Below are positions 4,965 through 47,490 of a stretch of DNA of 55,224 bases, one piece after another; the first letter of the stretch is position 1, and every line of letters starts with the position of its first letter. Location of the stretch: IMG/VR virus record IMGVR_UViG_3300046522_000750; one strand, written 5' to 3'. The stretch is from a virus. Lineage: Duplodnaviria; Heunggongvirae; Uroviricota; Caudoviricetes. A program made the position numbers and the translations under genes. The notes under the pieces were generated by a model. The model had not been told where the DNA came from. It did no database searches and was given only the letters and a program-made list of their open reading frames with translations.

Positions 4965-5936
4965 CTACAACCATCCAGACTTCTTAAAGCTCGCCCACAG
5001 GCCTACGCATCCGGTCGCAATGAAACCCAGGGCCGCAAAATAGCCGTAGTGCCAACTCAGCTCCGGCATGTTCTGAAAGTTCATGCCGTAGATCCATGCG
5101 ACCGCCGTAGGGAATGCAACTATCGCCGCCCACGACGCCAATTTGCGCTGCACCACACTTTGCCGTGACGCCTCCAGCAACACGCCGACTTCGATAGTTT
5201 GGCTGGCAATTTCGGACAACGATGTCAGGTCTTCAAGCTGACGGGTAACGTGAATCTGCACGTCACGAAAGTACGGGCGCATGGTTTTGTCGATGAAGGG
5301 AAAGTCCAGGTTTTGCAGCTCCTCGCTGATCTCCGTCATCGGCGCCACGTATCGACGCAGACGCAACACATCCCTGCGCAAGCAATGCAGTCTCTGGATA
5401 TCCTGCTCATTCAGCTCAGTGGCCAGGATGCTGCGTTCCAGCTCATCGATCTCGGCATGGATCGCCTCGCCCACCGGCTGGTAACTTTCAATCACGAAGT
5501 TCAGCAACGCATAGAGGACAAAATCCTCACCGTGCTCAAGCAGCAACGGACGCGCCTCGCAGCGCTGGCGCACATGGGCATAGGAGGCTGAGTGGCCGTT
5601 ACGGGCAGTGATGATGTAACCGTTACCGGCAAAGATATTCGTCTCGATGAACTCAAGCGTGCCTTCATGGCGAATCGGCGAGTAAGTCACGATAAACAGG
5701 GCATCGCCGAACGTTTCAAGCTTTGGTCGGCTGTGAACTTCCAAGGCATCCTGAATCGCCAGTTCGTGCAGGTTGAACTGGCTTTGCAGATCGGCTAACT
5801 CTTGGTTGTCGGGCTCCTCAAGACCAATCCATACAAAGTGGCCGGGCTTTGCGGCCCAGGCAGCGCCTTCGTCGAGCGTGATATTGGTGACTTTCTTACC
5901 GGCGTTGTAGACCGCAGCAGCAACAACTCGACCCAT
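4965..5936 (-). CDS. corA: CorA-family magnesium/cobalt transporter
   Basis: YGMNFQNMPEL (GMN signature), two C-terminal TM helices, N-terminal WIGL...FNLHELAI...SRPKLE typical of Pseudomonas CorA. Confidence 0.95.
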   Translation of the reverse strand: MGRVVAAAVYNAGKKVTNITLDEGAAWAAKPGHFVWIGLEEPDNQELADLQSQFNLHELAIQDALEVHSRPKLETFGDALFIVTYSPIRHEGTLEFIETNIFAGNGYIITARNGHSASYAHVRQRCEARPLLLEHGEDFVLYALLNFVIESYQPVGEAIHAEIDELERSILATELNEQDIQRLHCLRRDVLRLRRYVAPMTEISEELQNLDFPFIDKTMRPYFRDVQIHVTRQLEDLTSLSEIASQTIEVGVLLEASRQSVVQRKLASWAAIVAFPTAVAWIYGMNFQNMPELSWHYGYFAALGFIATGCVGLWASFKKSGWL

Positions 5937-9113: not shown

Positions 9114-9764
9114 CTACCGGCAGAAGTTCCAGATACGATTGGCCACTTCCTTGATGTCCAGGCTGCCGTCGACATGCGCGACCAGCGGGCGTGAAGCCAG
9201 TGGAGCCTCCATGTAATAGGCCCGAATGGCGCTAATCTGCTCGGCATAAATTCCCAGCCGCTTCAGCACAACCTCGGGGGCATCATCAGGTCGCTGTATA
9301 AGGGGCTCACCAGAGAGATCGTCGACCCCTTCCACCGCAGGTGGGCTATAGCGGATATGGTAGGTGCGCCCGGAGGCTGGGTGAACGCGCCGGCCACTCA
9401 TGCGCTCAACAATCACCTGCGGATCGACCGCAATCTCCACGACCGTGTCGATCACCACGCCCTGCTCGCGCAGCATCACTGCTTGTGCCACGGTGCGCGG
9501 AAAGCCGTCGAGGAGAAAGCCCTTGGCGCAATCGGGTTGGGCCAGACGCTCCACCAGCAGCTGCATGACAATCTCATCGCCAATCAGCTGACCGGTCGGC
9601 ATCAGCGCTTCAACCTGCAAGCCGATGAGCGTGCGGTTGGCCACGGCCTCACGCAGCATGTCGCCCGTGGAAATCTTTGGGATGCCCTTGCTCGCGCACA
9701 AGAGTTCAGCCTGAGTGCCCTTTCCGGCGCCCGGTGCGCCCAACAAGACGATGCGGTTCTTCAT
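9114..9764 (-). CDS. adk: adenylate kinase
   Basis: P-loop GAPGAGKGTQA, ISTGDMLR, GFLLDGFPRT, LID GRRVHPASGRTYH. Confidence 0.97.
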   Translation of the reverse strand: MKNRIVLLGAPGAGKGTQAELLCASKGIPKISTGDMLREAVANRTLIGLQVEALMPTGQLIGDEIVMQLLVERLAQPDCAKGFLLDGFPRTVAQAVMLREQGVVIDTVVEIAVDPQVIVERMSGRRVHPASGRTYHIRYSPPAVEGVDDLSGEPLIQRPDDAPEVVLKRLGIYAEQISAIRAYYMEAPLASRPLVAHVDGSLDIKEVANRIWNFCR

Positions 9765-11839
9765 GAAACCTCCGTTATTTCATTACTTGGATTTGTATCT
9801 TCGGAAATCTGCTCAAGCTTTATCAGCATTGATTCTGGCGATGGCGCAATCGACAGCGAGCGCGCTTGTGCAAACAATTGAGCAAGGCCTGAGAGTTCGC
9901 CCAGTTGCTGAGTGGCCTCAATCGTTTTAAAACCGTACTTGCGCCCCTCGCGCATGGTCGATAACAACCAGGGTTCTTCCTTCACGGCACTGATCTTACC
10001 CCGCGCATACAGGAACTTCCCTGACGCCCTGACCTGGTCGACCTCTTTCATTTTCTCGCGCCAGCTCAACACCTTGGACAGATGCTCGTGCTGACGCTTT
10101 ACCGAATCAATGAAGTACGTCAGGGAGTAGAACGTAAGATTGAGTTCGTCCTCATGGCGTTTGCCGGCCAGAACCAGGTCAATGGCAATGCGCATGGCAT
10201 CGCTGTCACCGTGGTTACTGTGATTGGAAACCGATGTGCTCAACCTTTGAGAGCAATAATGAAAGGCCAGGAAGCTCAAGTACGCCCGGATCTCACTGCG
10301 TTTATTCGCGTCAAACCACGGCACCATGTACGCATCATGGCTTTCGTAGTATTCATCATGGTGTGAGTACCACAACCAACCCAGCGCCAAGGTGCCAAGA
10401 TGGCCTAGTGCTGGCAATGCTTGCACAATTTCCGCCCCCAGCTCGTTGTAGTGCGCCAGGGCCTGAGCCAACTCAACCTGCTCTTCATCCATCTGTTCCT
10501 GACTCATCTCCCAGTCAGGCTCTGGCTGACTGGTATGCATCCGGGTGATCTTGGGCAGATAGTCCAGATACTCAGGAGAAAGCTGGGTGGCGTAGCGGTT
10601 GACCAGCGCCAGCAAGCGACCATCGTCCATCGCGTCATTGATGCACTCTGAAGCCCGCTTGGAGTGGTCACTGAGCAACTGCCAGGTGCGGTCATGAAAT
10701 TCACGATGCCAAACCGGCACCGCCAGCTCGGACGCCGGCTCATGGACTGGGTTGGTCATGTCGTACCAGTTTTTTATGATCCCCGGCACGTCGTCCATGT
10801 CCAGCCAATCATAAGTTCTCAGGTACTGCTGACCACGCTCGGTAAAAGTTTTGGCAATGCCAGCCTTGGGAGAGGCGAATGAACTGGTCAGAAACGAAAC
10901 CGCTCTCCAGTCTTCACTGACGCTACGCGGGTCACTCCCCGGCATTTCCCATACATGATCAGAACCCACGATATAGGTATTGTCCTCGAGCTCCACCGGC
11001 AACCCCTGCATCAACAACGCTGCGGCATCGAAGATGCGTCGAGAGTGGTTGCTGTACACCACGGGGAGAACACCCCCCAGATGGGTGTTGTTAAGCACCA
11101 GGCCCTTTTTGTCGAAACCATACAGCTTGAGCTCGAAGCCCAAGGGCAGCTCCTTCGCCTCTTCAATGGCCACGCGAGCGGGCTCTGGAACCTCTGGCAG
11201 CAGCTCATCACGGTAGAAGGCGACCAGAACCTCATTGTCACCCTTGATCGCCTTATAACGGCCCTCAGTGCGCAAGCGAGAGACCAGGTCTTCAGGCAGC
11301 CGGTCGACCAACGTCTTGATCCGGCTCCAGCGGATGGCCTTCCCGTTGGGAAGAAGGACGAACTCATGGGCTGGCGCCCCTGCCCTTTGCAGTTCCGGGG
11401 TGCGTTCAAACCAGCCAGTACCCGCCATATAGTGGTGGTACTCATCCATGATCATCAAGATACCTTTCGCCGCCATCTCTTTGTCCCTGGCTTCTTGCCC
11501 GGCTTCTGAGGTGTGGGCATCGATATCAAGGACTTTCAGCGGCAGCGCATTGACCAGTTTGTGCGCTTGATCAAACCCCAGGCTGTGCTTGCGGAACAGT
11601 TCCCAGCACAACGAATCCTTAATCGTGGAGCGCGAAAGATTGGGGAAATCTGCGGGCGAAATGTACTTGAGCAAATGGGCCTGCAGGTCATGCAGGTCGC
11701 GATAACCCAATACGGTCGCCAGCAGATTTTGCGATTGCATGAGGGTCATTGGCGCCAGCGGCCAGTGTTTTTTCAGCGCTTTGGCGAGCTTTGACAGACG
11801 CTTGGAATCGACATCAGCATTGGTAATCAGAACACGCAT
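9761..11839 (-). CDS. large hypothetical protein
   Basis: 692-aa ORF, ATGA overlap with adk; N-terminal helical motif KLAKALKK...QNLLATVLGYRDLHDL. Confidence 0.85.
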   Translation of the reverse strand: MRVLITNADVDSKRLSKLAKALKKHWPLAPMTLMQSQNLLATVLGYRDLHDLQAHLLKYISPADFPNLSRSTIKDSLCWELFRKHSLGFDQAHKLVNALPLKVLDIDAHTSEAGQEARDKEMAAKGILMIMDEYHHYMAGTGWFERTPELQRAGAPAHEFVLLPNGKAIRWSRIKTLVDRLPEDLVSRLRTEGRYKAIKGDNEVLVAFYRDELLPEVPEPARVAIEEAKELPLGFELKLYGFDKKGLVLNNTHLGGVLPVVYSNHSRRIFDAAALLMQGLPVELEDNTYIVGSDHVWEMPGSDPRSVSEDWRAVSFLTSSFASPKAGIAKTFTERGQQYLRTYDWLDMDDVPGIIKNWYDMTNPVHEPASELAVPVWHREFHDRTWQLLSDHSKRASECINDAMDDGRLLALVNRYATQLSPEYLDYLPKITRMHTSQPEPDWEMSQEQMDEEQVELAQALAHYNELGAEIVQALPALGHLGTLALGWLWYSHHDEYYESHDAYMVPWFDANKRSEIRAYLSFLAFHYCSQRLSTSVSNHSNHGDSDAMRIAIDLVLAGKRHEDELNLTFYSLTYFIDSVKRQHEHLSKVLSWREKMKEVDQVRASGKFLYARGKISAVKEEPWLLSTMREGRKYGFKTIEATQQLGELSGLAQLFAQARSLSIAPSPESMLIKLEQISEDTNPSNEITEVS

Positions 11840-12915: not shown

Positions 12916-12941
12916 AAAAAAGCCCAGCAATGCTGGGCCTT
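12916..12941 (-). terminator. intrinsic terminator closing the membrane-protein array
   Basis: GCCCAGCA-a-TGCTGGGC stem with adjacent A/T tract. Confidence 0.7.
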
Positions 12942-12959
12942 CGCTGCAAATTGTGCGCG

Positions 12960-13439
12960 TTATCTTAAGGTATTTTTTTCTACAAAAACGACCAAGAGGC
13001 ACATCGCGTAAACGAATGTCGCAATGAAAACGATGAGGGGTACTGCCGCAAAGGGGGCGTACACGCACAACGACAATATTGAGACAAGGCGCATCCGCTT
13101 ATTGGCAGTGTCCAGCTTGGCGTACAAGGGACTGTAGCGCAGCCCTTGCTTGACCATCGAAGAGCACACGCAAGAGAGCCAGAGCTTCACCACCAGCATC
13201 GTGGCTGCGAAACCGAATGGCAGCCAGTCGTGAAGACGAATCCTGGCCCACAACACATCCTTGAGCCAGATAACCGCGCTCACCGACCAATGACACATCG
13301 CTACGATGGCTTCACCCACTGCATCGGCATAGGTGTAAATCAGCGCAATGGCCACCACCAACGCCAGCACCACCGATCCGCACTTGAGAAAGATCGACTG
13401 CACTGAGCGCTTGAATTCTTGAGGCGTGAGATTGCTCAT
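12960..13439 (-). CDS. array membrane protein (Cys/Trp family)
   Basis: FLKCGS...; LWLSCVCSSMVKQGL; about 4 hydrophobic segments. Confidence 0.85.
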   Translation of the reverse strand: MSNLTPQEFKRSVQSIFLKCGSVVLALVVAIALIYTYADAVGEAIVAMCHWSVSAVIWLKDVLWARIRLHDWLPFGFAATMLVVKLWLSCVCSSMVKQGLRYSPLYAKLDTANKRMRLVSILSLCVYAPFAAVPLIVFIATFVYAMCLLVVFVEKNTLR

Positions 13440-13501
13440 GTTTTCCCTTTTCTGTTCGACTGTACTGAGCGCCTGAATTCTTCAGGCGTAAGATCGCTCA
13501 T
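13436..13501 (-). pseudogene. 21-codon mini-ORF duplicating the N-terminus of 12960-13439
   Basis: MSDLTPEEFRRSVQSNRKGKT* versus MSNLTPQEFKRSVQSIFLK; ATGA overlap with downstream gene. Confidence 0.75.
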
Positions 13502-13502
13502 G

Positions 13503-14093
13503 TTATTCACTCTTTTGGGCTGGAGCGAATGCGTCTTGAAGACCTTCAGCATCTTTCAGGGCTTTTTCTCTTTCCTTCTTTTCTTCCTCAAGCCTTGCCT
13601 CAATACTAATCTTTGCCACTAGAATCACGGTGAAAAGAAAGAAGCGTCCGAATCCTGTATGAAAATCTTCGCTACCGCCAATAATCGCCAAATAGACAAG
13701 GACAACAAACCAGGCACCGAATTGTTCAGCGGCCTTGTCAAAAGCCTTGTAGACCTTCGTGGAAATGCCCTTTCTTTTCAAGTGATGGGCAATGCAGGAG
13801 CACCAGAGGTAAGCACCAAACAGAAAGATCCAGAAAAGCGCTGTGGCGCCGATGACCGCTTTGTACACAAAAACAAACGGATAGGTGACCACGCCAAAAA
13901 TGAATGTCGCCGCCGTACCAACAAAGGCCAGATTGGTACTCAAGAAGATCCACGCCGAAGTCATGAAATCCTCCAACTCGTGAGGATACTCATAACAGAA
14001 ATAAGCCAGGCTGCCGGCGAACAAAACGGCCAACCCACAGGTTAGGCAGGTGAGCAGATACTCACGCATGTACGAGGTATTACCATGTTCCAT
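13503..14093 (-). CDS. array membrane protein
   Basis: LTCLTCGL; LWCSCIAHHLKRKGI; start MEHGNT after GGAG RBS. Confidence 0.85.
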   Translation of the reverse strand: MEHGNTSYMREYLLTCLTCGLAVLFAGSLAYFCYEYPHELEDFMTSAWIFLSTNLAFVGTAATFIFGVVTYPFVFVYKAVIGATALFWIFLFGAYLWCSCIAHHLKRKGISTKVYKAFDKAAEQFGAWFVVLVYLAIIGGSEDFHTGFGRFFLFTVILVAKISIEARLEEEKKEREKALKDAEGLQDAFAPAQKSE

Positions 14094-14114
14094 GACAAAC
14101 TCCGGAGGGTGTAT

Positions 14115-14154
14115 TTGTATTCCGTGATTATGATCGCTTGTCAATATCTGTCAA
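14115..14154 (-). promoter_or_regulatory. 40-bp array promoter/operator copy
   Basis: minus strand TTGACAgataTTGACAagcgatCATAATcacGGAATACAA. Confidence 0.8.
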
Positions 14155-14197
14155 TTTGTTGTTATCAATAACACCGGTTCGCATATATGCGATGCAT

Positions 14198-14223
14198 AAA
14201 AAAGCCCTCATGCAGAGGGCTTT
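14198..14223 (-). terminator. intrinsic terminator
   Basis: AAAGCCCTC-atgca-GAGGGCTTT. Confidence 0.7.
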
Positions 14224-14253
14224 CGATCAAATCAATTATATATTGTCAGAAAG

Positions 14254-14706
14254 TCAACTTGCATTCACCGACTGGAAAACGTCGCAGAAGAAGAACTTGA
14301 GACATACAACAATCAGGAATGGCATAAACACAGTAGAAATTGCCTCTGGCTGAGCCCAGAAGACCGTAACGCCCTCCACCATCGCGGTCACCCCCAGGAT
14401 CATTCTGAGCTTGTACAAATCTTCCAGTACGTAAGCCTCTGCCTTGAGTTTCTTTAGGCGAGAACTGGCCAGTGAGATCCAGCCGTAGAACACAAATACG
14501 CCCAGGCTCACCCAGTAATGCAAGGTGATGAGGATAGCCTGCCAAGCCGCATTGCTGCCCTCGACTTCAATCGGAGCGCTTTGCACCGGGTGTTGACCTC
14601 CCCAGTACAGCACGAACACATGAAACAGCACGCCGGCGACCAGAGCCCAGATGGCGCTGCGAAGGAGCGTTTTTCTAACTTCGTTGACGGGAGCCGTAGT
14701 GAGCAT
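14254..14706 (-). CDS. membrane protein, divergent array member
   Basis: 4 hydrophobic segments; GWISLASSRLKKLK is a weak version of the family motif. Confidence 0.75.
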   Translation of the reverse strand: MLTTAPVNEVRKTLLRSAIWALVAGVLFHVFVLYWGGQHPVQSAPIEVEGSNAAWQAILITLHYWVSLGVFVFYGWISLASSRLKKLKAEAYVLEDLYKLRMILGVTAMVEGVTVFWAQPEAISTVFMPFLIVVCLKFFFCDVFQSVNAS

Positions 14707-14717
14707 TGGATCTTTCC

Positions 14718-14912
14718 TTAAACGTGAAAGTTGGCGCTTGAAGATTTATGTGACCAATCAACAATCGCCACGAAGCCAATGAGGAAGGTAACGCTGCCAA
14801 AACAAAATGGCGAAGGCGACAACGGGGTGTACAACACGAGCGCTAGCGTAGCCAGCAATCCCACGCACAAAGAAACCCTCTCCATGCGCGTGTACAGCGG
14901 TCGACCCGACAT
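14718..14912 (-). CDS. small 2-TM membrane protein, possible truncated array member
   Basis: 64 aa, VSLCVGLLATLALV. Confidence 0.55.
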   Translation of the reverse strand: MSGRPLYTRMERVSLCVGLLATLALVLYTPLSPSPFCFGSVTFLIGFVAIVDWSHKSSSANFHV

Positions 14913-15015
14913 TCCCTACCTCTCCATGGCCGTCAATACTGAGATAAATCAGACATAGACCACAGAGGAACCTGCACCGCCTTACGCATACATTCTTGTA
15001 TTCAGCAGATCTGAC

Positions 15016-15849
15016 TTACCACTCCGTCACGAGGCGGTAGTGAAGCTCTTCCTCGACCTGAATGTCGTCAGCTTCAGAGTTCAATCGGAACAGCGCAACA
15101 GTACCGTTACCCATAAACTGAGCCGACACCGGAATGCATGTGTGATCCGGGAAATTCTGCTGGCAATAAGCAATGTCCTGGCGGGTTTGGACGATGCTGT
15201 GTTTATCGTTATGCCCTTTAGCCTGAACAGGCACTACGTATTCGACGCCGTGCTTATCAATCGCAGTGTAGATTTCATCAATTTCGATCTGCCCGATGCC
15301 CTTCACGGTAGTTCGAAGATGATTCTGTCTAGACCAGGTCGTCAAGCCAAGGAAAATGGCAATAAGCCTGGAATCCCTGATCTTCGCAAGCATGAACTGT
15401 TCGTCGTCGCAGTCCTTGCGTCTATGGAATGGCGACGTGTCATCCGGAACGTTGATGACCTCAAGTTCAGGGTTCGGCGTCAAGCGAACTAGCTTGATGA
15501 GTCTTGCCTGGTAGCGCCCTAAGCCATTCCCATCAATGAGCCATTCCTTTCCTTCCGGAGCAAGATCCACGATCTGCTGTGGCAAGGGCCTTCTGTAACG
15601 GAAGGTATAGATCACGTCGCCTAGATTTTTAGGGATGTCGACCTCACGCTTTGTTGCGGCCTTTCGCATGCATTCACGAGTAAACTTTAGGCTGTAATCC
15701 TCTGCCAGGTAATCAACTGCATCAGGATTGTCAGTGATGACCGAGAAAATCTCAGTGATGACTGCGTCGTAACTACTGAATGTGCAGGTGCTATCTGAAT
15801 TAGACGAGTCCGCTTCGTAAAAATTTTCCACTTCGGATGCTTCAAGCAA
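15016..15849 (-). CDS. PD-(D/E)XK restriction-endonuclease-like protein, no cognate methyltransferase nearby
   Basis: DDEQ..LAKIR..RL, QNHLRTTVKGIGQIEIDEIY...VPVQAKG nuclease-like motif. Confidence 0.7.
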   Translation of the reverse strand: MLEASEVENFYEADSSNSDSTCTFSSYDAVITEIFSVITDNPDAVDYLAEDYSLKFTRECMRKAATKREVDIPKNLGDVIYTFRYRRPLPQQIVDLAPEGKEWLIDGNGLGRYQARLIKLVRLTPNPELEVINVPDDTSPFHRRKDCDDEQFMLAKIRDSRLIAIFLGLTTWSRQNHLRTTVKGIGQIEIDEIYTAIDKHGVEYVVPVQAKGHNDKHSIVQTRQDIAYCQQNFPDHTCIPVSAQFMGNGTVALFRLNSEADDIQVEEELHYRLVTEW

Positions 15850-16206
15850 AAATCACCGCCTAATTTTTATAGATCAAGTCATCAAGCTGTCAATATATCA
15901 CATATTATTGAAGTGTAAATATTCTGAATTTGCATAATTCAGCAAAGTGGCTGGTGCGCGGAAATCACTGAAATTACTGAGGTCAGGTGGGTCAGCATCG
16001 GAAATTTCCTTGGCGTGGGCGTCGATCATTTCGACAAGTGACTTGCGAGTGACCCGTCCAAAAAATGCTTCTGTGATGAGACAGGAGGCAGATCACACCT
16101 TCGGCTTTAGGTGCTTTCTGCTGTTGCGCCTAGAGCGCCCTACGAAGCCATCCTGAGAGATTCAGCTTCGAGACGCCCTCTTCCATAGCGTTGATGATCA
16201 TTGAAA

Positions 16207-16809
16207 TCAGGTTGTCTCTGGGTCATGAGACTTCTTAACTTCATTCATCAAACCGGCCTCTTCAGTGGCTTCAGTCGGTGATTGTGCATTCTGACGCTGT
16301 TTTTTGTCAAAATCGTCATACCAATTTCTTTCCATCAACATCTTTATAACTGTAGAAGCCGTGAAGGTAATAAACGCCAGGAGGTCGGGGCCGTGTCCTA
16401 AAAGAGGAAGTACCTTGAGGTAGATGAGCAAGCACACGAAGACGCCCAGAAAGCTTCTAGCCGTAGCGACGGTAGTCGTATACCGGTTACGGATGCCTTT
16501 TACCCGCAGCTTGTGGGCCACGCTGTAGCACCAAGCATAGAGCGGGACAGACACGCAAAGCGCGGTCATGGGTAGGCTTAACAACCAGAAAAACAGGTCA
16601 TAACAGGGCAGCAACAACGGGTGTAGGATGGCTGCATTCGGCTGATACAGCGCCGCCAGGATAGCCCCCACCGATGTTAGAAAAACACCTGACTCATCAG
16701 GGAAATTGACTAGGGTGTAAAGCATCGACAGTGCAATCAAGACCGCCACACCACAGGTCACGGTCGTGAACACTGACTGCCTTACGACGGATGGATGGTT
16801 AATGCTCAT
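16207..16809 (-). CDS. array membrane protein
   Basis: VTCGVAV; WCYSVAHKLRVKGI; start MSINHP with ATGA coupling. Confidence 0.85.
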   Translation of the reverse strand: MSINHPSVVRQSVFTTVTCGVAVLIALSMLYTLVNFPDESGVFLTSVGAILAALYQPNAAILHPLLLPCYDLFFWLLSLPMTALCVSVPLYAWCYSVAHKLRVKGIRNRYTTTVATARSFLGVFVCLLIYLKVLPLLGHGPDLLAFITFTASTVIKMLMERNWYDDFDKKQRQNAQSPTEATEEAGLMNEVKKSHDPETT

Positions 16810-17330
16810 TGGCCTGCCCCTTGCGCTTGAACCGCGTCTTCTTCGGATTGTTCGAGAGCTTGATTTTTCACTCGATCTTCCTCGAGCTTCGCCTCCATTT
16901 TTAAGCACAAAAAGAGCAGGATAACCGTAAGGACTAATCCCATAACCAGCCCAAAGCGCCAGGCTTTTTCCGCCTCTATTACCAACTGCACCAGCCAATA
17001 GAGACCAAATCCACACATGATGACGTTCCTGGTGCGATTGACCACCGTCGCATAGCAACCCGTCACACCCTTCTTGTTTAGGTTGTGACTGATACAGAAA
17101 GACCAGAGAAAGACGCCGGCCAGGATCCACTTCACTGCCGAAGGAATGTCCTGCGACAGCCAGAGCGCGACCGGCCCAAACGCTGCGGCCAGATACCCAC
17201 TGAACGCTATGAGTTCTTGAAGGTACACCACAATCGCGCACACCACGGATGAAACACCACCGATCACCAGCGCGCAGGTGACAGAGGTTACAACGCATTC
17301 TTTGACGACTGAGGGTTGATCAACATTCAT
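16806..17330 (-). CDS. array membrane protein
   Basis: VTCALV; LWSFCISHNLNKKGV. Confidence 0.85.
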   Translation of the reverse strand: MNVDQPSVVKECVVTSVTCALVIGGVSSVVCAIVVYLQELIAFSGYLAAAFGPVALWLSQDIPSAVKWILAGVFLWSFCISHNLNKKGVTGCYATVVNRTRNVIMCGFGLYWLVQLVIEAEKAWRFGLVMGLVLTVILLFLCLKMEAKLEEDRVKNQALEQSEEDAVQAQGAGQ

Positions 17331-17895
17331 TGTGCTGTTCCTTGAGCGCTTGAGCGGGTTCATCTTCAGCACACCGATGTGCCTCCCGGACTGCTTTCAA
17401 ATGGGCTTCAGAAAATTTAACCGCCAACTTGAAAACGCATACGGACATGAAGACATAAATGAGCGCGATAGCCATTGCTGCGAATGATACCAACGGGTCG
17501 TCTCGATTCAGGCAATAGGCAAAAAGGATCCCGATGATGAGCGCGCCACTGCCACGTTTGGTGTATTTGACAATTTTTGAAAAACCACCATCGTTCCCTT
17601 TGCCCTTGAGTTTGTGGCTCACACAGAGGCTCCATAGGAAAACAGCGGGCACGATCCACTTGACCAGCTCGGGCAACTCAACCACTTGGCTTGCGAGGGG
17701 TTTGATCAATCCTATGAGGAATGCGGAAAGCGCCACCGCCCCGCTTGCGATGCTCAGGGCAAGGAACTCAATCCCGTTGATGAGCACCTGATGATAATGG
17801 GTTAGGCCATACAGCAATGCCACCAGCGCGCCAACCGTCAAGGCACATTGCACACTGGTTGCCATATATTCTTTTGTCGACGATTCAGCACTCAT
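17320..17895 (-). CDS. array membrane protein
   Basis: VQCALT; LWSLCVSHKLKGKG. Confidence 0.85.
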   Translation of the reverse strand: MSAESSTKEYMATSVQCALTVGALVALLYGLTHYHQVLINGIEFLALSIASGAVALSAFLIGLIKPLASQVVELPELVKWIVPAVFLWSLCVSHKLKGKGNDGGFSKIVKYTKRGSGALIIGILFAYCLNRDDPLVSFAAMAIALIYVFMSVCVFKLAVKFSEAHLKAVREAHRCAEDEPAQALKEQHNEC

Positions 17896-18386
17896 AGAGC
17901 AGTCTCCTTGTTTTTCGACCTTTTAATATCGTCTTTGATCATCTGGATTAATATCCCAATCAAAAACAACCCCGTGAAGACCGGCATAAACAGGCCTTTC
18001 TTTATTAGCACCATACTGAAAATTGTCACGAACACCGTCAGAAAGCTGTGTTTGGTGATGGTCATGTTCTGGTAGGCGGGGCCGTTGACCCCGTATTTGT
18101 CGAGTTTTTTGCAAACACACCACGCCCACAGCCAGGCGCACAGCGAAGCTATCTGCACACCCAGCGGTAAGTCAGCAACGAAGTGGTACGTCGCCTCAAC
18201 GGGGATGAACGCGATCAGCGCCATCGATACGAGCCACTCCCAAGAAGCCGCCAGTACCTCAAATGTTTTCGATGGATCCAGCAGGGACACGTACAGCAAC
18301 GCGCCCAATACCAACGCGCAGAGGCCGCAGGTAAGGCCGGCCCAGATCACTTTTTGGGATTGATCAATGGACGAATAATCACGCAT
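17892..18386 (-). CDS. array membrane protein
   Basis: LTCGLC; LWAWCVCKKLDKYGV; start MRDYSS. Confidence 0.85.
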   Translation of the reverse strand: MRDYSSIDQSQKVIWAGLTCGLCALVLGALLYVSLLDPSKTFEVLAASWEWLVSMALIAFIPVEATYHFVADLPLGVQIASLCAWLWAWCVCKKLDKYGVNGPAYQNMTITKHSFLTVFVTIFSMVLIKKGLFMPVFTGLFLIGILIQMIKDDIKRSKNKETAL

Positions 18387-18591
18387 CCTTTTCACCCTCG
18401 CCGAGGGCCTTAGCCTGCGGATCTTCAAGATCAGGCTTTTCGCCTTCGCTTTTCTTGCCGGCCTTAATAGATGCCTCAAACTTCTTTGTCGAAATATAGA
18501 AATAGACCATCGCAGGCCCACTGGCGATACCTAGAGAAACAAATAGAACCTGCATCCAGTACCCAATATCAACGGGATTATTAAAGTCCAT
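18379..18591 (-). CDS. small single-TM protein within array
   Basis: MDFNNPV..., one hydrophobic segment, overlaps both neighbours. Confidence 0.6.
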   Translation of the reverse strand: MDFNNPVDIGYWMQVLFVSLGIASGPAMVYFYISTKKFEASIKAGKKSEGEKPDLEDPQAKALGEGEKDA

Positions 18592-19165
18592 TGCTACGCC
18601 CCTTTTTATACAAGTCGCCATTAACTTTTTCAACGCGATGTAATGTCAGATTCAACAAAAGAGCGCCGAACGTTAGAAAAAGATATTTCAATACCGTGGT
18701 TGAATAACTTTGATCAACATTGGTTTCCGCAACCAAACTAAGCACGAGTAGAATCGAGGGCAAAATAGTGATTGGCCGATATATAGTCACTAATCTTTCA
18801 AATCTGTAGTCAGTAATATTTCTAAGTTTCAATTTATTGATTGCGCAACCGCAAATCATCGATCCACACACCAGCAACAAACTCAATGGAAAGACGACAG
18901 GCCTGATCGGCATAAGAAAGTATTCAACCACACCTCGCCAAAAGGAGCTGTCATTGATTGCTTCCACTAGCGGAAAGGTATTCCAAAAAACCGTATCCAG
19001 CCATTTGAAAATGAAATCCTTGGTGACTAAAAAGCAGTCGACAGCCTGGTCTGTCCAATAGATAACAAACACGCCAAGAAGCGCCATAAGAAGAACGGGT
19101 AAGCCACATTTCAATAAGATGTTTCGCACAACGTTATTTTGGTGAAGCGAGGAATCAAAGTTCAT
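18581..19165 (-). CDS. array membrane protein
   Basis: LKCGLP; ICGCAINKLKLRNI; AT-rich. Confidence 0.85.
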   Translation of the reverse strand: MNFDSSLHQNNVVRNILLKCGLPVLLMALLGVFVIYWTDQAVDCFLVTKDFIFKWLDTVFWNTFPLVEAINDSSFWRGVVEYFLMPIRPVVFPLSLLLVCGSMICGCAINKLKLRNITDYRFERLVTIYRPITILPSILLVLSLVAETNVDQSYSTTVLKYLFLTFGALLLNLTLHRVEKVNGDLYKKGRSNGL

Positions 19166-19692
19166 TTATTTACACCCTCATCACATAATATTTCTTTGTT
19201 TTTTAAAAGTGTGTATAAGGCAATAGGCGATATAACAAATCCAAAAAACGCCAAGCACCACAGCGAAGTTTTTTCAGAGCTTCTCTGGGGAATCATGCTA
19301 AACCAAATTAAAGCCGCCAGAACTACAGTGGCCAATACGCTAAATAAACAAGCGGTATACACCCTGCCCATCTGCACATACACGTTTCCTGTCTGTCCTT
19401 TTGATTTAAGGTGGTTAAGTGCACAGGCACTCCAGAGGAAAGCCAGAATGACAATGACAGTGATAGGAAAAATCACGCTGTCGAGGGCACGCAAAACATT
19501 GCCTGCACCGTAATAGGCAAAGGTCAGCCCTGACAAGAAGTAATCAAAAATCACGCCCAGAGCGCCCAAGGAGGCTTCTGGGTTCAAGAAAACGACCAGG
19601 CCAAACACCCCAAATGTGGCAACCGGAATTCCACATTTTAGTACTGTCTTTATCGCCGCCTTGTTGACGTCATTCGTTCCATCATCTTGCAT
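19162..19692 (-). CDS. array membrane protein
   Basis: LKCGIP; LWSACALNHLKSKG. Confidence 0.85.
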   Translation of the reverse strand: MQDDGTNDVNKAAIKTVLKCGIPVATFGVFGLVVFLNPEASLGALGVIFDYFLSGLTFAYYGAGNVLRALDSVIFPITVIVILAFLWSACALNHLKSKGQTGNVYVQMGRVYTACLFSVLATVVLAALIWFSMIPQRSSEKTSLWCLAFFGFVISPIALYTLLKNKEILCDEGVNK

Positions 19693-19712
19693 AAGGTGCA
19701 ATCCAGGTGGGT

Positions 19713-19752
19713 TTGTATTCCCGGATTATCCGCTTTTGTCAATTTGTGTCAA
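19713..19752 (-). promoter_or_regulatory. 40-bp array promoter/operator copy
   Basis: minus strand TTGACAcaaaTTGACAaaagcgGATAATccgGGAATACAA; identical to 21119-21158. Confidence 0.85.
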
Positions 19753-19939
19753 ATGATTGATAAATGAGGGGGTCTATGCAGGATATTGTTGAATAACTGA
19801 TTTATTGCCTGTACCAACGCACCACCCACAATACCCGTGGATTTGGGAACCTCTGGCGTATCGGTGTTCATCAAGGAGCAATTCGTGACGGCAGCTTTTG
19901 TACCTTGCCTGCTGGAAGGGATAACATTTTCAGCAGGCG

Positions 19940-19968
19940 AAAAAAACCTGCGACCAAAAGGCCGCAGG
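19940..19968 (-). terminator. intrinsic terminator
   Basis: CCTGCG.CC-aaaa-GG.CGCAGG stem with T-tract on minus strand. Confidence 0.6.
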
Positions 19969-19986
19969 CAGAGACAAAACCAACGC

Positions 19987-20535
19987 CTAGGGATTGGTTA
20001 TATCGGCAACCTTTTCACTTTCTAGCCTTCTCTCAAGGTTGGTGCAATAGACATAACCATTGCCAACACACAGCACCACAAGTGATGTCAGGAAAAATAA
20101 TGCGGCGAAGTCTGTTTTGTTTGGCGATTGACCCATTTGCATAATTAATAAAATCGTTACTACAAAGATTACTGCATTTGTTTTCAAAACGAATCCGGTG
20201 TGAACTCCACCTTGAATCATTTTCACATTAATACAGGTAAGCCAGAGGCTGATGCAGGTAACAACAGCCACTACTGAAGGATATTCGACAATATAGTTCA
20301 ACAGCGCCGTAATATTTACAAGTTGATCTAACCAAGCACCAGCATAATCTACAGCGGATACTATAGCCTTAACGAAATAAGCCAAACCACCAACAATCAT
20401 CAAAACAATATCTGATGATTCTTTTGGAAAGGAAAAGGCGATCAACGATACAACCAATGCGACAGCCACCGGAATACCACACTTGATCGCAGTTGTTCGA
20501 ATATCTATATTTGCCTTGACTGCAGTATTCATCAT
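19987..20535 (-). CDS. array membrane protein
   Basis: IKCGIP; LWLTCINVKMIQGGV; TAATG coupling to upstream gene. Confidence 0.85.
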   Translation of the reverse strand: MMNTAVKANIDIRTTAIKCGIPVAVALVVSLIAFSFPKESSDIVLMIVGGLAYFVKAIVSAVDYAGAWLDQLVNITALLNYIVEYPSVVAVVTCISLWLTCINVKMIQGGVHTGFVLKTNAVIFVVTILLIMQMGQSPNKTDFAALFFLTSLVVLCVGNGYVYCTNLERRLESEKVADITNP

Positions 20536-21077
20536 TAAATCCACTTTGACTTAAGGTTCAGTTTATGTTCAGCGTACGTTGAAAAAATGACAAGTAATAT
20601 TCCATAAAACTCAGTCCAGATCAGCCATTCAATGCTTTGGACAGCACCTGGAAATAACAACAGTGTCGCAGTAGCAAGATTGAAGAAAAATAATACTCTC
20701 CAGCAAGATATAAGGTACATGCACGAGTTTCTCAATCTTGTTGCACAAGCCTCGCTACCTTCTTTTGTGCTCAGATGGCGTACTGCGCAAATTTGCCAAA
20801 TAACCAGACCGGCTACCAAAATACTGACAGCAATAGCCACACTCCCGAACCACCCCGCCGAATACCCCTGAACAAACACCTGAGCAGCAGATCCAGCAAT
20901 GGCGATCAGCACGACATCAATCGATGCGACAACCAACTCAATCAGCGGCTTGAACAAATTGTAGGCTTGTTCCTGGAACAGGAAGCAAAACAGAAAGAGC
21001 CCCGTTACCAGTGCAACGGGAATGCCGCACTTGAGTGCCGCTTTGCAGCCTTCGTTGGGAACGGTGCTATCAGACAT
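20535..21077 (-). CDS. array membrane protein
   Basis: LKCGIP; IWQICAVRHLSTKEG. Confidence 0.85.
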   Translation of the reverse strand: MSDSTVPNEGCKAALKCGIPVALVTGLFLFCFLFQEQAYNLFKPLIELVVASIDVVLIAIAGSAAQVFVQGYSAGWFGSVAIAVSILVAGLVIWQICAVRHLSTKEGSEACATRLRNSCMYLISCWRVLFFFNLATATLLLFPGAVQSIEWLIWTEFYGILLVIFSTYAEHKLNLKSKWI

Positions 21078-21118
21078 TTTCAGTTTCTCCACTCTTGGAT
21101 ATTTTGATTTTACTGGTC

Positions 21119-21158
21119 TTGTATTCCCGGATTATCCGCTTTTGTCAATTTGTGTCAA
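21119..21158 (-). promoter_or_regulatory. 40-bp array promoter/operator copy
   Basis: exact 40/40 match to 19713-19752. Confidence 0.85.
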
Positions 21159-21202
21159 TTTATAGAAACAAAATCGAACGCCAACCTGGTCATCAGATAA
21201 AA

Positions 21203-21233
21203 ACAAAAAACCCATCGATGATGGGTCTTTGTT
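21203..21233 (-). terminator. intrinsic terminator
   Basis: CCCATC-gat-GATGGG with T-tract on minus strand. Confidence 0.6.
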
Positions 21234-21262
21234 GGCTGTCTATGCCGAAAGTACTGAGCTTT

Positions 21263-21769
21263 TTATTCAGCCGATAGCAGTTTTTTGATTTTTTCATCTT
21301 CCTGCATTTCAATGACTCTCATGAACATCAACACCACCATGTAGAAAAGGCCCACTAAAAAAAAGCCTTCTGGAGCGTTTGACGCTGGCACGTACATCAT
21401 CACCGCTGCGATAGAGAGGAACGTAAACCAGTTTCTTACGTTGTCTAGCCGGGCATACAGATTACTCTGAAGGTGTTTCTTCTTCATCGAAGCGCAGATG
21501 CACGTGAGCCATAGATAAGCCGCGATAAACACGCCAGGAACCACAATTGGCAACCATGACCAATAGGCATAGACCGAATAAAAAACTTTTACAGCCAGGG
21601 TCAGGTTTTCGAAAGTCCACTTCAATGCAACGAGAGTGGCTGCAACTACCTCGGTGGAGAAAACAACCAAAAAGCTCACAAGCAGCATCGCCGCCACAAT
21701 ACATGAACCACATTTAATGGCATTGGATACGAGGTCGTTTTTGAAATTTTCCGCTGAATTGGTGCTCAT
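21263..21769 (-). CDS. array membrane protein
   Basis: IKCGSC; LWLTCICASMKKKHL. Confidence 0.85.
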   Translation of the reverse strand: MSTNSAENFKNDLVSNAIKCGSCIVAAMLLVSFLVVFSTEVVAATLVALKWTFENLTLAVKVFYSVYAYWSWLPIVVPGVFIAAYLWLTCICASMKKKHLQSNLYARLDNVRNWFTFLSIAAVMMYVPASNAPEGFFLVGLFYMVVLMFMRVIEMQEDEKIKKLLSAE

Positions 21770-21821
21770 ATCATCATCCTTATATTTTGAATTATCGCCA
21801 GCGGCTGGACTACCCATCGGC

Positions 21822-21861
21822 GTGTATTCGCGGATTATGAGCTTTTGTCAAAAACTGTCAA
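21822..21861 (-). promoter_or_regulatory. 40-bp array promoter/operator copy
   Basis: minus strand TTGACAgtttTTGACAaaagctCATAATccgCGAATACAC. Confidence 0.8.
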
Positions 21862-21885: not shown

Positions 21886-22047
21886 TCAGGCCGCCAGGCC
21901 CATAAAACAAAACCCTTCCGAGGAAGGGTTTTTGGTGTGCTTCTCTTTTCGAGAGTAGCCAGTTTTGTCGGTGACGACGCGCTGTCGGTACAGCGGGATC
22001 ATGACCATCGATTTAGCTTTGCTTTTCTTGCCAGGGCCTTTTTTCAT
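21886..22047 (-). CDS. arfA: alternative ribosome-rescue factor A-like protein (53 aa), absent from ORF track
   Basis: MKKGPGKKSKAKSMVMIPLYRQRVVTDKTGYSRKEKHTKNPSSEGFCFMGLAA*; PL(F/Y)RQRV...SRK.KH core resembles ArfA; GGAG RBS 6 nt upstream. Confidence 0.75.
   Translation of the reverse strand: MKKGPGKKSKAKSMVMIPLYRQRVVTDKTGYSRKEKHTKNPSSEGFCFMGLAA
21909..21932 (-). terminator. terminator/RNase III-type hairpin inside the arfA-like ORF
   Basis: AAAACCCTTCC-tc-GGAAGGGTTTT followed by GTTTT on minus strand, upstream of the stop codon. Confidence 0.8.
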
Positions 22048-22104: not shown

Positions 22105-23700
22105 CTACAGGCCCAACGCGTCCGAAAGCATCGCTCCTTTCATCAGATTGATCTCCCTGGGGCTGAAGAAGGATTCAACCCCCAGGTCTTTGACAATCTG
22201 CAGGTGATGCTCAACCGCCATGATCGCCCGCAATGTTTTCCTGAATTCACCACGATTGAAACGCTCTGAGAGCCCAAGGGGCCACGCCGTTGGCCGATCT
22301 TTGTTCACATGGCTCAAGTAAATGAACGAGGCTTCGCTCAGGGTGGCCGGCGCATACGGACTCAGTGCTTTGGTGTAGTTGTTCAGGCGTACAATGATCG
22401 ACGTAAGAGGCTCAGTCGACTCCAGCACCTCACGTGCGGCTTTGAGATCTGCTGCATACGCAGGCACCACAGAAGATTGAGCTGCACCCTCCTCCAGAGC
22501 CAATACCAGTTGCCAAAGCACCCCGCGAAAAGGATTTAGGTTGTGCAACTCGGCTTGGCTGTAAAAGCTCTCGACACCCAGGATCTGAATGATGTCGGTG
22601 TGAGGCTTGAACGGTGAAGAGCTACGATGGCGCTTACGAAATGCCAGTCGATCAAGCACCGTATCTAGTTTCAGTCCCTTGAAGACCTCCGGCTCGCCAG
22701 ACACCGTGCCAAGTACCATGTAGCCCTCAAGGTCAATGTTGGTTTCGGCGCAAGGCATCAGCGCTTTCACCATCGTTGAACAGCCCTTGGCGTGCCGGCC
22801 ACGAGCCGGCTGTTTTTCCAATAGCTTTCGCAGCTTGCTCAGCGTTCTGTTCTTGAGTGTATGGACTTGCTCCTCACTGATTTTGTCCTCAAATCGCAAG
22901 CGAACAATCATCTCCTCGAGCATTTCATGCATGTTCAGAAAGTGACCAAGATTGGCGTGATCAAGATCGCCCACCAGCGATTTGCAGAACTGGTGACCAT
23001 CAATGCCCTTTTCCAGCAACGCAGGTACGCCACCATGGCGCTCAACCATCGCAAGCTTGCCCTCGTCTATCCGGTAATGATGGAACTCGCGACCCATTTT
23101 GGGCAGTTGATTCACCAGGCTTACGCCGCGTTTGGCCTCTTCAATCAGCTTGAGCTCTGCTTCAAGTTCAGCCAGGCGCTCACCGCCTTCGAATGCGATG
23201 CAGCCGATTTTGTCGCGAATACTGTGCGTGGTAATCCAGTGATCTGGGGCTGGCTTTTGCGTGGACAGGTAAAACACCGCCGCTAACAGGTTTTGGTTCT
23301 TAACTTCACTCCACGCCACGTACAGCCAAACCCGGTCATGCCCCTTGAGGTTCGCGTTGACCCAACCAAAGGTTTGCTCCAGGAGGTGCAGAAGATCCAG
23401 GGTGCCAATGTCCTCAGCCTGAAGCTGTAAAATCTTGCTCGACATCAGTTTTTCGTAAAGCTCATGAATGTTCGACGCGGGGCCACTGCCATGCGAATGA
23501 ACACTCAAGGCGATGGCACGGCTCATGGCGGTCAGCCTGTACCTGTCTTCTACATCCAGCACTTCAAAACACTTGTCGATCACTGTCTTGTAGGGCTGGA
23601 AGGCAGCCTGTGGATCATCGAAGCCGGAAGTAGCACCTACGCGCACGAGACAGTTCCTCTGTAAAGCGATTCTGGATTGACTATTTGTCAATTTATACAT
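22105..23700 (-). CDS. large hypothetical protein
   Basis: 531-aa ORF ending LSDALGL; true start probably a little downstream of 23700. Confidence 0.8.
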   Translation of the reverse strand: MYKLTNSQSRIALQRNCLVRVGATSGFDDPQAAFQPYKTVIDKCFEVLDVEDRYRLTAMSRAIALSVHSHGSGPASNIHELYEKLMSSKILQLQAEDIGTLDLLHLLEQTFGWVNANLKGHDRVWLYVAWSEVKNQNLLAAVFYLSTQKPAPDHWITTHSIRDKIGCIAFEGGERLAELEAELKLIEEAKRGVSLVNQLPKMGREFHHYRIDEGKLAMVERHGGVPALLEKGIDGHQFCKSLVGDLDHANLGHFLNMHEMLEEMIVRLRFEDKISEEQVHTLKNRTLSKLRKLLEKQPARGRHAKGCSTMVKALMPCAETNIDLEGYMVLGTVSGEPEVFKGLKLDTVLDRLAFRKRHRSSSPFKPHTDIIQILGVESFYSQAELHNLNPFRGVLWQLVLALEEGAAQSSVVPAYAADLKAAREVLESTEPLTSIIVRLNNYTKALSPYAPATLSEASFIYLSHVNKDRPTAWPLGLSERFNRGEFRKTLRAIMAVEHHLQIVKDLGVESFFSPREINLMKGAMLSDALGL

Positions 23701-29331: not shown

Positions 29332-30117
29332 TTATTTCGCAGTGGCTTCGCTTAAGGCTTTAACCGCCTCTTCAACCGTGTCGCTATGACCCAGCCAGGT
29401 GCAAGCCATCATCAGGTTGCGAGGGAGACCAAAGTCTTCAACGTTCATGCCGTCTGCGTCGATACCGTCGACGTTGGGAACCTGCTCCAACAGCGTTCCT
29501 TCGTTGCTGAAGTAAGCCCAGATCTTCTTTTTCAGAGCCAGGGCCATGCCGAATTCAAACACGGTGCCCGAATCAGGCTCCTTGCCACGGAAGTGATTGA
29601 GGTTGATCAACACCCCCGTGCAATTTCGGATCATGTCCATGTTGGCCTGGCTGATGACCTTGGCCGCGTCAGGGCCTGTGAGGCCTTCAGGAATGGCGTT
29701 GTCGAACGGGTACAGGCCGATCATGCCATGCTCGGCGCACAGCGCCTTAAGGTACTCGCCACGGGCCACGCCGTCTTGGCGGAAAACGTCAGGGCCGGCC
29801 AAGTAAATTCGTTCCTTTCCCTCACGCTTGAGCAGCAGAGCGTTGATCTCAGCCTGAGCCTTGTTAATGATCGCTTGTTGCTGGGCAATCAACTTGGTGA
29901 TGTCGTTGCTGTCGTTCCAGATACGGATCAGGGTCATCTTGTCGACGTCCCAGGTACAGCCCTGAATCACTTCATGCTTGCAGGTTTTGCATTTACCGCC
30001 GCCCAGGTTGGGGTTGCTGTAACCCATGTCTTCAATGCTGATGTCAGTGCCACTGCATTTGATGCAGGGTGCGACATAGACATCCACGGTGGTCTTTACG
30101 GTTTTTTCAATGCGCAT
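29332..30117 (-). CDS. nucleoside 2-deoxyribosyltransferase-family domain fused to an N-terminal Zn-ribbon
   Basis: IYLAGPDVF...LYPFDN...FRGKEPDSGTVFEFGMA; N-terminus CIKC...CKTC...IWN. Confidence 0.85.
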   Translation of the reverse strand: MRIEKTVKTTVDVYVAPCIKCSGTDISIEDMGYSNPNLGGGKCKTCKHEVIQGCTWDVDKMTLIRIWNDSNDITKLIAQQQAIINKAQAEINALLLKREGKERIYLAGPDVFRQDGVARGEYLKALCAEHGMIGLYPFDNAIPEGLTGPDAAKVISQANMDMIRNCTGVLINLNHFRGKEPDSGTVFEFGMALALKKKIWAYFSNEGTLLEQVPNVDGIDADGMNVEDFGLPRNLMMACTWLGHSDTVEEAVKALSEATAK

Positions 30118-35082: not shown

Positions 35083-35084
35083 CA

Positions 35085-35111
35085 AAAATCCCTCTGGTTT
35101 CGTACATTATG
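35085..35111 (-). promoter_or_regulatory. repeated -10/RBS leader of cassette A
   Basis: minus strand CATAATgtacgaaaccAGAGGGATttt; 26/27 identical to 38000-38026. Confidence 0.75.
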
Positions 35112-35172
35112 GTGTTTGAGCTGAAGGTGCTGCAATCCGGCCATGGCGCTCAGCCCGCCACTGGTAGCCAAG

Positions 35173-35205
35173 AAAAAAGCACCCGGCGTGATCCAGGTGC
35201 TTTTT
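35173..35205. terminator. terminator of cassette B
   Basis: AAAAAAGCACC.GG-cgtgat-CC.GGTGCTTTTT. Confidence 0.8.
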
Positions 35206-35221
35206 CTGAAACCCCGATTAA

Positions 35222-36544: not shown

Positions 36545-36622
36545 AATAATCCCTCTGATTTTAGACATTATCCGTGTTGATCATCAATCGACACAACGAC
36601 CTTGAGTTTGATAAATGCAAAG

Positions 36623-36651
36623 AAAAAGCACCGGGTTTTGGCCAGGTGCTT
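36623..36651. terminator. terminator of cassette C
   Basis: AAAAAGCACC.GG-ttttgg-CC.GGTGCTT. Confidence 0.75.
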
Positions 36652-36671
36652 GTGACTCAGGTCGCAGTTGA

Positions 36672-37997: not shown

Positions 37998-37999
37998 CG

Positions 38000-38026
38000 A
38001 AAATCCCTCTGGTTTCGTCCATTATG
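38000..38026 (-). promoter_or_regulatory. repeated -10/RBS leader of cassette C
   Basis: minus strand CATAATggacgaaaccAGAGGGATttt. Confidence 0.75.
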
Positions 38027-38141
38027 CTGGTTGAGACGATTGGGCAACAACCGTCGCAGGCCAAGAAAAAGGAGCCCCTACTGTGTAGAAACTCCCTCAG
38101 TTATCACCAGTCGCTTGATCTGGCCGCTGATCTGTCAGACA

Positions 38142-39404: not shown

Positions 39405-39517
39405 GCACTTATCCCTGTTAGTTTTTTCCAAATTTAGCTTTGGAAGGCAATCATATTCAAGAAAGACCGGCCACTGCGTGAATAGCCGATCCTTCGATCA
39501 AAGACTTCTACTCCGGA

Positions 39518-40756: not shown

Positions 40757-40850
40757 GCCTGATCCCTCAAGGTTTTTTACATTATGGCGCTGGAGTTGCC
40801 GGGTATTCAAGAAATGTACAAAGCCCGGAATAACGACGGGCCTTGGCTGG

Positions 40851-47453: not shown

Positions 47454-47490
47454 GATGAGGCTTATCCTGAGGTAATGACCTGATTGTAGC

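Follow-up and report, generated by a model that had tools for sequence, protein, structure and literature searches.

Poly-immunity arrays of polymorphic toxins, as in type VI secretion systems (T6SS), contact-dependent inhibition (CDI) systems, and Rhs proteins, consist of tandem, co-oriented, diverged small paralogs whose copy number varies. Immunity to pore-forming colicins is provided by A-type inner-membrane proteins with four transmembrane (TM) helices or by E1-type proteins with three (PMC9018753). The entry-exclusion factors TraS and Eex use cytoplasmic regions to act on TraG of the donor, a VirB6 homolog, and known exclusion genes adjoin their target (traG/VirB6 or traY) and occur singly, in one or two copies (PMC11493245). 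Here we describe an array of genes for small membrane proteins at positions 12,916–21,861 of the IMG/VR record IMGVR_UViG_3300046522_000750, a stretch of 55,224 nucleotides referred to below as the window. An initial annotation of this DNA had proposed an undescribed and diversified repertoire for immunity or exclusion. Both adjectives stand, given that the members match no described family and that array content varies between relatives; the functional part of the proposal is weighed below.

Eleven intact canonical paralogs of 159–200 aa, delimited from the open reading frame (ORF) listing and by inspection of start sites, are encoded on the minus strand within 12960–21817. In the direction of transcription, they are m13 (21263–21769), m12 (20535–21077), m11 (19987–20535), m10 (19162–19692), m09 (18581–19165), m08 (17892–18386), m07 (17320–17895), m06 (16806–17330), m05 (16207–16809), m02 (13503–14093), and m01 (12960–13439). 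Pairwise BLASTP comparisons among them give mostly 20–30% identity, with E-values down to 2e-18, and BLASTP and the tree described below identify m01 as the closest paralog of m13. A common hidden Markov model (HMM) had been suggested as a check on the family; circularity was avoided by building it solely on 27 members from two other plasmids, those carrying the arrays L001 and L009. This model recovers 11 of the 11 window members (E 8e-14 to 3e-39), and the members align in it. It also matches a distant 141-aa singleton outside the array (48333–48758, minus strand; E 1e-8 to 2e-9), a gene remnant at 14721–14915 (minus strand; E 1.5e-8) and, weakly, m03 (14254–14706, minus strand; E 1e-4 to 2e-3). 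Besides these family-related ORFs, none of the 366 window ORFs matched at E<10. Judged by their sequences, the array genes are thus true paralogs of one family.

The estimate of about 12 paralogs in the initial annotation is corrected to 11 canonical genes, to which m03, the truncated remnant, and the outlying singleton are added. The interval also encloses two genes that are not members, a restriction endonuclease (REase) and a mini-ORF. In the alignment, m03 proves to be a divergent, Cys-less member with RSA in place of KCG and W-I-S-L in place of W-x-x-C. The remnant is the 3′ part of a member of the 167-aa type that was cut by insertion of the REase gene; it aligns to the 3′ part of the gene at 10545–11048 of a third array, L007.

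Two alignments, one of the 11 window members and one of 59 family members, define the conserved features. The Cys that opens TM1 is invariant in both, and a Trp and a second Cys three residues on, at the end of TM2, are each present in at least 90% of members. This W-x-x-C motif is followed by a short Lys/Arg-rich loop (L-K-x-K-G). All 11 N-terminal (K/T/Q)C(G/A) motifs and all six W-x-x-C...K-G motifs quoted in the initial annotation were located in minus-strand ORFs; m13, for example, carries IKCGS and LWLTCICASMKKK. Individual members depart from the pattern: in m09 the Trp is replaced and a C-G-C motif is found, and m05 has a Ser at the canonical second Cys position and a Cys immediately after the Trp (W+1).

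The mean number of Lys and Arg residues is 1.9 in the N-terminal tail, 4.2 in loop 2 (after W-x-x-C), and 3.5 in the C-terminal tail, and it is low outside these regions, at 1.5 in the acidic loop 1 between TM1 and TM2 and 0.4 in the TM3–TM4 turn. By the positive-inside rule, this charge pattern predicts an N-in/C-in topology for the four predicted TM helices, which would place both conserved Cys residues on the cytoplasmic face. An AlphaFold2 (AF2) model of m07, computed with the 59-sequence alignment, is all-helical (pLDDT 79.5), and the two Cys are predicted to be close neighbours on the cytoplasmic side of the TM1/TM2 hairpin. The hairpin is the best-conserved part of the protein (26% pairwise identity). 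The suggestion that the periplasm-facing parts are hypervariable is borne out for loop 1, a predicted periplasmic or interfacial segment that varies most in length (26–53 aa) and has a pairwise identity of 13%. Variability is no lower, however, in TM3, TM4, and the charged cytoplasmic tail (11% pairwise identity).

The two Cys residues appear to work as a pair, because their loss was joint in two subfamilies (the m03 type and the 167-aa type), which still have the Trp, and because two family members contain no Cys besides these two. At the same time, the Cys-less subfamilies stay conserved, with m03 orthologs 71–81% identical and a ratio of nonsynonymous to synonymous substitution rates (dN/dS) of 0.18, so the fold would also have a Cys-independent role. 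These two retained subfamilies offer a natural control for experiments. Of the 59 members, 35 have an additional Cys no more than three residues away (24 members), a His two to five residues past the second Cys (18 members), or both. A universal three-ligand metal site composed of Cys, Cys, and Cys or His was considered and rejected, since the other 24 have no third ligand.

An explanation built on this pair alone would be that the members are small thiol-based membrane proteins that serve, at the cytoplasmic leaflet, in metal binding or trafficking or in redox sensing or transfer, with the Cys pair as the active site and a nearby third Cys or His in some. The invariance of the first Cys and the retention of the second at about 20% overall identity, the joint loss of both in two subfamilies, the extra ligands in 35 members, and a conserved corA gene a few genes away would fit such chemistry. 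It is nevertheless regarded as distinctly unlikely: a third ligand is missing from 24 members, no recurrent or significant Pfam match was obtained, Cys-containing membrane families included, the Cys-less subfamilies are strongly conserved, and there is no obvious reason why one array should hold 10–15 diverged metal or redox proteins. Should the pair bind metal or act in redox, it would constitute a new small membrane cofactor site.

Searches of Pfam, NCBIfam, PHROGs, and PADLOC with the members returned nothing significant or recurrent. For the 59 members, no Pfam family recurred and the best single-member matches were unrelated domains of unknown function; Pfam families ranking after the first 25 matched one member each and ranked behind a best E of 0.083. 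A match of one member to SdpI/YfhL (E 2.4e-4) was dismissed as hydrophobic noise. A sequence profile search of the PDB gave no match, and fold searches with the m07 model (Foldseek against pdb, afdb_clusters, and afdb_swissprot; VIA wide; ESM Atlas) found nothing above helical-bundle background, the best matches being a de novo TM design (Z 7.8) and fragments of large transporters (TM-scores of at most 0.51). A language-model atlas search gave no usable match. The possibility, raised in the initial annotation, that the members belong to a known transporter family is therefore not borne out, as no match to any known family was obtained. The family comprises lineage-restricted small proteins, predicted to reside in the inner membrane, with no match in any library searched.

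The array is organized into several promoter–terminator units, as had been proposed. Four near-identical 40-bp promoter cassettes lie upstream of m13, m12, m10, and m02, each composed of a TTGACA, four bases, a second TTGACA, and a (C/G)ATAAT element spaced 16 nt from the first hexamer, with CC-GGAATAC after it. On the minus strand, cassette 1 (TTGACA-N4-TTGACA...CATAAT; 21834–21861) would drive m13 as a monocistronic unit, cassette 2 (21131–21158) m12 and m11, cassette 3 (19725–19752) m10 through m05, and cassette 4 (14127–14154) m02 and m01. Five terminators of the hairpin-plus-U type were found, one after the ArfA-like ORF described below and four within the array, all on the minus strand: after m13 (21206–21230), after m11 (19946–19969), after m03 (14200–14224; −16.2 kcal/mol, z −3.7, then U6), and after m01, at the array end (12918–12942; −21.4 kcal/mol, z −3.0, then U6). 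The reported stop–start coupling is real; genes inside units overlap by 1, 4, 8, or 11 nt, including a 1-nt stop/start overlap between m12 and m11 and an ATGA overlap between m10 and m09.

Copies of the cassette number four in the window, four in L001, two in L007, and five in L009, and none was found elsewhere in the window or beside singleton members. Because it is confined to the arrays, the cassette is a dedicated, conserved regulatory element, predicted from its sequence to be a strong sigma-70-type promoter. Its conservation extends to plasmids whose proteins share only about 64% identity. With its nested TTGACA and the GGAATAC element, the cassette may also serve as an operator for a regulator.

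The AT-rich character of the right half of the array was correctly noted: GC is 0.40–0.46 for m13–m09 and 0.50–0.53 for most other members, with 0.47 for m02. A derivation of members from different sources is not shown by this, as the m09, m11, and m12 types show this AT-richness in all relatives; any foreign origin of these subfamilies would consequently predate the split of the plasmids. In a maximum-likelihood tree of 47 members, sequences cluster with their subfamily instead of their plasmid, with 31 changes of plasmid label. Most subfamilies are represented in three or four plasmids, and lineage-specific duplications are few. Because members group by subfamily across plasmids, the diversification is old, and by this tree about ten subfamilies predate the split of the megaplasmids that carry them. 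Comparison of the window with L007 gives dN/dS values of 0.23–0.64 for the members, against 0.02–0.16 for the flanking genes w531, w692, and adk and 0.42 for w176. By this measure the members are real genes, on which purifying selection is relaxed but clear.

In the relatives, the locus has the order 513–515-aa protein, 53–63-aa ORF, array, ~690-aa protein, adk, and, further on, corA, with 13 members in L001, 8 in L007, and 15 in L009. A core composed of the mini-ORF, m08, m07, m06, m05, the 167-aa type, m03, and m02 keeps its positions in L007 and L001 and partly in L009. The flanks of L007 are about 90% identical in DNA to those of the window, yet the window has three extra genes (m13, m12, and m11), an intact m09, and the REase insertion; L007 is without those three genes and most of m09, and L001 and L009 carry extra copies. 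The array is thus not invariant among relatives, an outcome that would have spoken against a diversified repertoire. The breakpoints between the window and L007 coincide with promoter-cassette repeats, and cassettes are gained or lost at the AT-rich, promoter-proximal end of the array. Because of these cassette indels at promoter repeats and the inserted REase gene, the locus is tolerant of accessory or defence cargo.

Such partial conservation bears on the possibility that the paralogs are subunits, or alternative subunits, of one hetero-oligomeric inner-membrane assembly serving plasmid machinery, for example a platform for proteins tagged like the 513-aa protein, which ends in LGL. L007 and L001 keep the coupled order m08-m07-m06-m05, as does, for the most part, L009, which has no m07 ortholog; each subfamily is kept under purifying selection in most plasmids examined; the cytoplasmic-face motif is conserved and common to all; and the array strictly co-occurs with the 513-aa tagged protein. 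A fixed complex is difficult to reconcile with a copy number that varies from 8 in L007 to 15 in L009, with the dispensability of the m13, m12, m11, and m09 subfamilies in L007, and with singletons on other elements, and the four separate promoter–terminator units speak against strict stoichiometry. An assembly of this kind is considered unlikely.

The replicon itself appears to be a very large plasmid. Array proteins are encoded on a 1.13-Mb contig of rhizosphere metagenome origin, and DNA runs of other rhizosphere metagenomes contain near-identical copies on contigs that break at the promoter repeats; no RNA run is among the runs listed as carrying such copies. In PLSDB, the adenylate kinase of the window is closest to those of the 1.17-Mb Pseudomonas silesiensis plasmid pPL1 (64%) and of pMPPla107 (60%, MPF_I). 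The link to the MPF_I plasmid pMPPla107 is made through adk only, and no transfer genes were seen in the window. The family is absent from both plasmids, a family member gave no tblastn match in PLSDB, and no near-identical DNA was found among PLSDB plasmids or INPHARED phages. An exhaustive profile search of 1.84 billion representatives yielded just 55 clusters, all but two of which (66 and 102 aa) are 154–199 aa long; no longer, fused forms were found, itself weak evidence. All contexts examined are megaplasmid-like contigs of about 1 Mb or unplaced metagenome contigs, and no phage genes were found in them.

Single members also occur outside arrays, on contigs of 70 kb to about 1 Mb. In L013, L014/L015, and L020, the singleton directly follows a gene for an OmpA-type lipoprotein with a Gly-zipper (9254–10528, 9137–10495, and 9327–10471, respectively). 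This lipoprotein was considered and rejected as a general partner, as it belongs to one closely related lineage (83–88% identical) and is absent beside other singletons. L019 carries a tandem pair of members, and L012 and L018 carry singletons, L012 at about 33% GC.

The REase gene is the sole foreign gene among the members. It encodes an intact type II enzyme (15016–15849, minus strand; PADLOC REase_II, 7.4e-87) and has its own promoter-like site at 15892–15919. The gaps on both sides up to the array genes contain no ORF of at least 80 aa, and therefore no methylase gene adjoins it. The insertion is missing from L007, L001, and L009 and in the window replaces the 5′ part of the 167-aa-type member. 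This cargo, together with the cassette turnover at one end of the array and the location of small membrane proteins in an accessory locus, could be taken to suggest that the members act in anti-phage defence or abortive infection as membrane effectors or sensors, or are phage superinfection-exclusion proteins, diversified against different phages. We consider this very improbable, since no member has a PADLOC or PHROG match, no sensor or enzyme genes are associated, the promoters are strong and of a constitutive type, and the family is confined to giant-plasmid-like or unplaced metagenome contigs whose examined contexts hold no phage genes.

The other non-member of the array is a mini-ORF for a protein of 70–84 aa with one TM helix (18379–18633, minus strand), which occupies the same position in the relatives and is 84% identical to its counterpart in L007 and 31–44% identical to those in L001 and L009. 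Directly upstream of the array, an ORF at 22105–23700 (minus strand) encodes a soluble, all-alpha protein of 513 or 531 aa that ends in ...SDALGL. Just five homolog clusters of this LGL-tailed protein were found among 5.8 billion proteins, and the four with fetched loci all adjoin arrays; a tblastn search of PLSDB gave no match. As the one strictly co-occurring gene, it is the sole candidate partner identified. Its AF2 model, from five sequences, has a pLDDT of 50 and was too poor for a fold search. The protein repeats the start of its own tail motif, with LGVESF(Y/F)S at about 356–363 and at 488–495 of the 513-aa form.

Between this gene and the array lies a 53-aa ORF (21886–22047, minus strand) resembling ArfA (Pfam E 8e-4) and DUF7230 (E 5e-4), both below the cut-off; L001, L007, and L009 have a 53–63-aa gene at the same position. 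The terminator hairpin at 21909–21932 falls inside the ORF, and the frame reads through it. The arfA gene is regulated through a truncated non-stop mRNA, its reading frame running through a terminator hairpin. Downstream of the array lies a gene for a 692-aa protein. Many further large plasmids on which single-sequence tblastn found no family member encode distant homologs of this protein, and it is therefore not specific to the array; used as an anchor in a search of genome contigs, it revealed no relative.

Further afield, the minus strand of the window encodes housekeeping-type proteins, namely a nucleoside 2-deoxyribosyltransferase (29332–30117), an adenylate kinase (9114–9764; 100% identical in product to that of L007), and CorA (4965–5936). 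Five tandem paralogs of 429–448 aa at 33763–40810 (minus strand) are soluble proteins with a conserved N-terminal half and a divergent C-terminal half and basic tail. They were considered as cognate pore-formers and set aside: no long hydrophobic stretch was apparent on reading, and the one scanned against Pfam gave no hit. Two Arc/HicB-like proteins fused to HTH_3 are encoded on the plus strand (1348–2103 and 2247–2999) and two HigA-like helix–turn–helix proteins with long C-terminal extensions on the minus strand (45333–46217 and 46566–47504). No toxin partner was noticed next to these genes, for which no dedicated search was made.

Based on these data, the array might supply a set of variants that differ in specificity and serve plasmid-linked self-protection or exclusion, a reading that we put forward tentatively, as possible rather than probable. 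All members would share a cytoplasmic-face "handle" formed by the Cys pair and the basic loop, while the differing membrane and periplasmic parts would allow each to recognize or neutralize a different membrane-acting partner. Protection could then take the form of immunity to membrane-targeting proteins exported by the plasmid family itself, or of exclusion of related plasmids; the 513-aa LGL-tailed protein would be the candidate partner.

Several observations weigh against this reading. The members resemble no known immunity or exclusion family in sequence and no known fold in structure searches. No gene for a pore-forming toxin was found beside the arrays of the window, L001, L007, or L009 or beside the singletons, and no type IV secretion system (T4SS) genes were found within at most 10 kb on each side of the four array loci or among the window ORFs scanned. 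Within about 10 kb of any array or singleton examined, the neighbours annotated by Pfam are limited to adk, corA, a nucleoside deoxyribosyltransferase, an OmpA-like lipoprotein, HNH, and NADAR, with no toxin, pore-former, or T4SS component. Unlike exclusion genes, the array comprises 8–15 copies, shares no sequence similarity with them, and has no adjoining target gene. The age of the subfamilies and the purifying selection on them do not suggest an obvious arms race; the orthologs give no sign of gene-wide positive selection, and the periplasmic loop is not enriched in substitutions. Finally, the invariant cytoplasmic Cys pair points to chemistry (metal, redox, or acylation), and we know of no pore-former immunity protein with such a pair at the cytoplasmic face.

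A more specific version of the self-protection and exclusion reading would see here a new class of Cys-pair-dependent inner-membrane proteins for self/non-self discrimination by Pseudomonas-type plasmids of about 1 Mb, each subtype neutralizing either a single class of LGL-tailed proteins that arrive by type-IVB delivery or a single variant of the transfer channel of a rival plasmid. We hold this to be decidedly improbable; if true, no "poly-exclusion/immunity" locus would have been described before this array for the secretion arsenal of a megaplasmid. More generally, megaplasmids of about 1 Mb consist mostly of ORFans, and for this family the motifs, predicted topology, orthogroups, dedicated promoter, and a strictly co-occurring neighbour are now delimited. 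If the array indeed serves as a panel for immunity or exclusion, the presumed secretion arsenal of the plasmid would be connected with self-protection, and giant plasmids would be shown to police each other.

The comparison with described systems defines where the array stands. DsbB, VKOR, and MerT/MerC-like proteins carry CxxC motifs or vicinal Cys pairs on the periplasmic side or within the membrane, whereas in the array proteins TM1 and TM2 each have a lone conserved Cys at the predicted cytoplasmic end, and Pfam gave the members no significant or recurrent hit to any family, these thiol and metal membrane families included. Entry-exclusion factors such as TraS, Eex, and ExcA resemble the array members in being small and poorly conserved membrane proteins; they reside in the recipient and act on a T4SS protein of the donor. 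The cytoplasmic mode of interaction of TraS and Eex echoes the conserved motif and variable tails of the array, and the carrier replicon is, through adk, related to an MPF_I megaplasmid. Orphan-immunity arrays likewise are tandem, co-oriented sets of strongly diverged paralogs whose copy number differs between relatives, but the subfamilies here are ancient and positionally conserved. No toxin genes, toxin C-terminal fragments, or secretion markers were found between or beside the members, the gaps holding only terminators and the promoter cassette.

The closest resemblance in architecture is to the A-type, Cai-like immunity proteins, which share with the array members a length of about 160–200 aa, four predicted TM helices, an inner-membrane location, and a promoter of their own. 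By prediction from hydropathy, charge, and the AF2 model, the members conform to the A-type pattern of an integral inner-membrane protein of about 170–180 aa with four TM helices, and specificity is expected to lie in membrane-embedded parts in A-type proteins, as is proposed for the array members. In contrast to A-type proteins, the array members have no sequence similarity to them and possess the cytoplasmic-face Cys pair and W-x-x-C motif, and instead of one copy there are 8–15 tandem copies, on one clade of giant plasmids only. Because the defining features of the three systems that can be tested here, homology and an adjacent toxin or T4SS gene, are lacking, the array is not a member of any of them. 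It may work like colicin immunity proteins, exclusion proteins, or orphan-immunity arrays, but it belongs to none of these systems.

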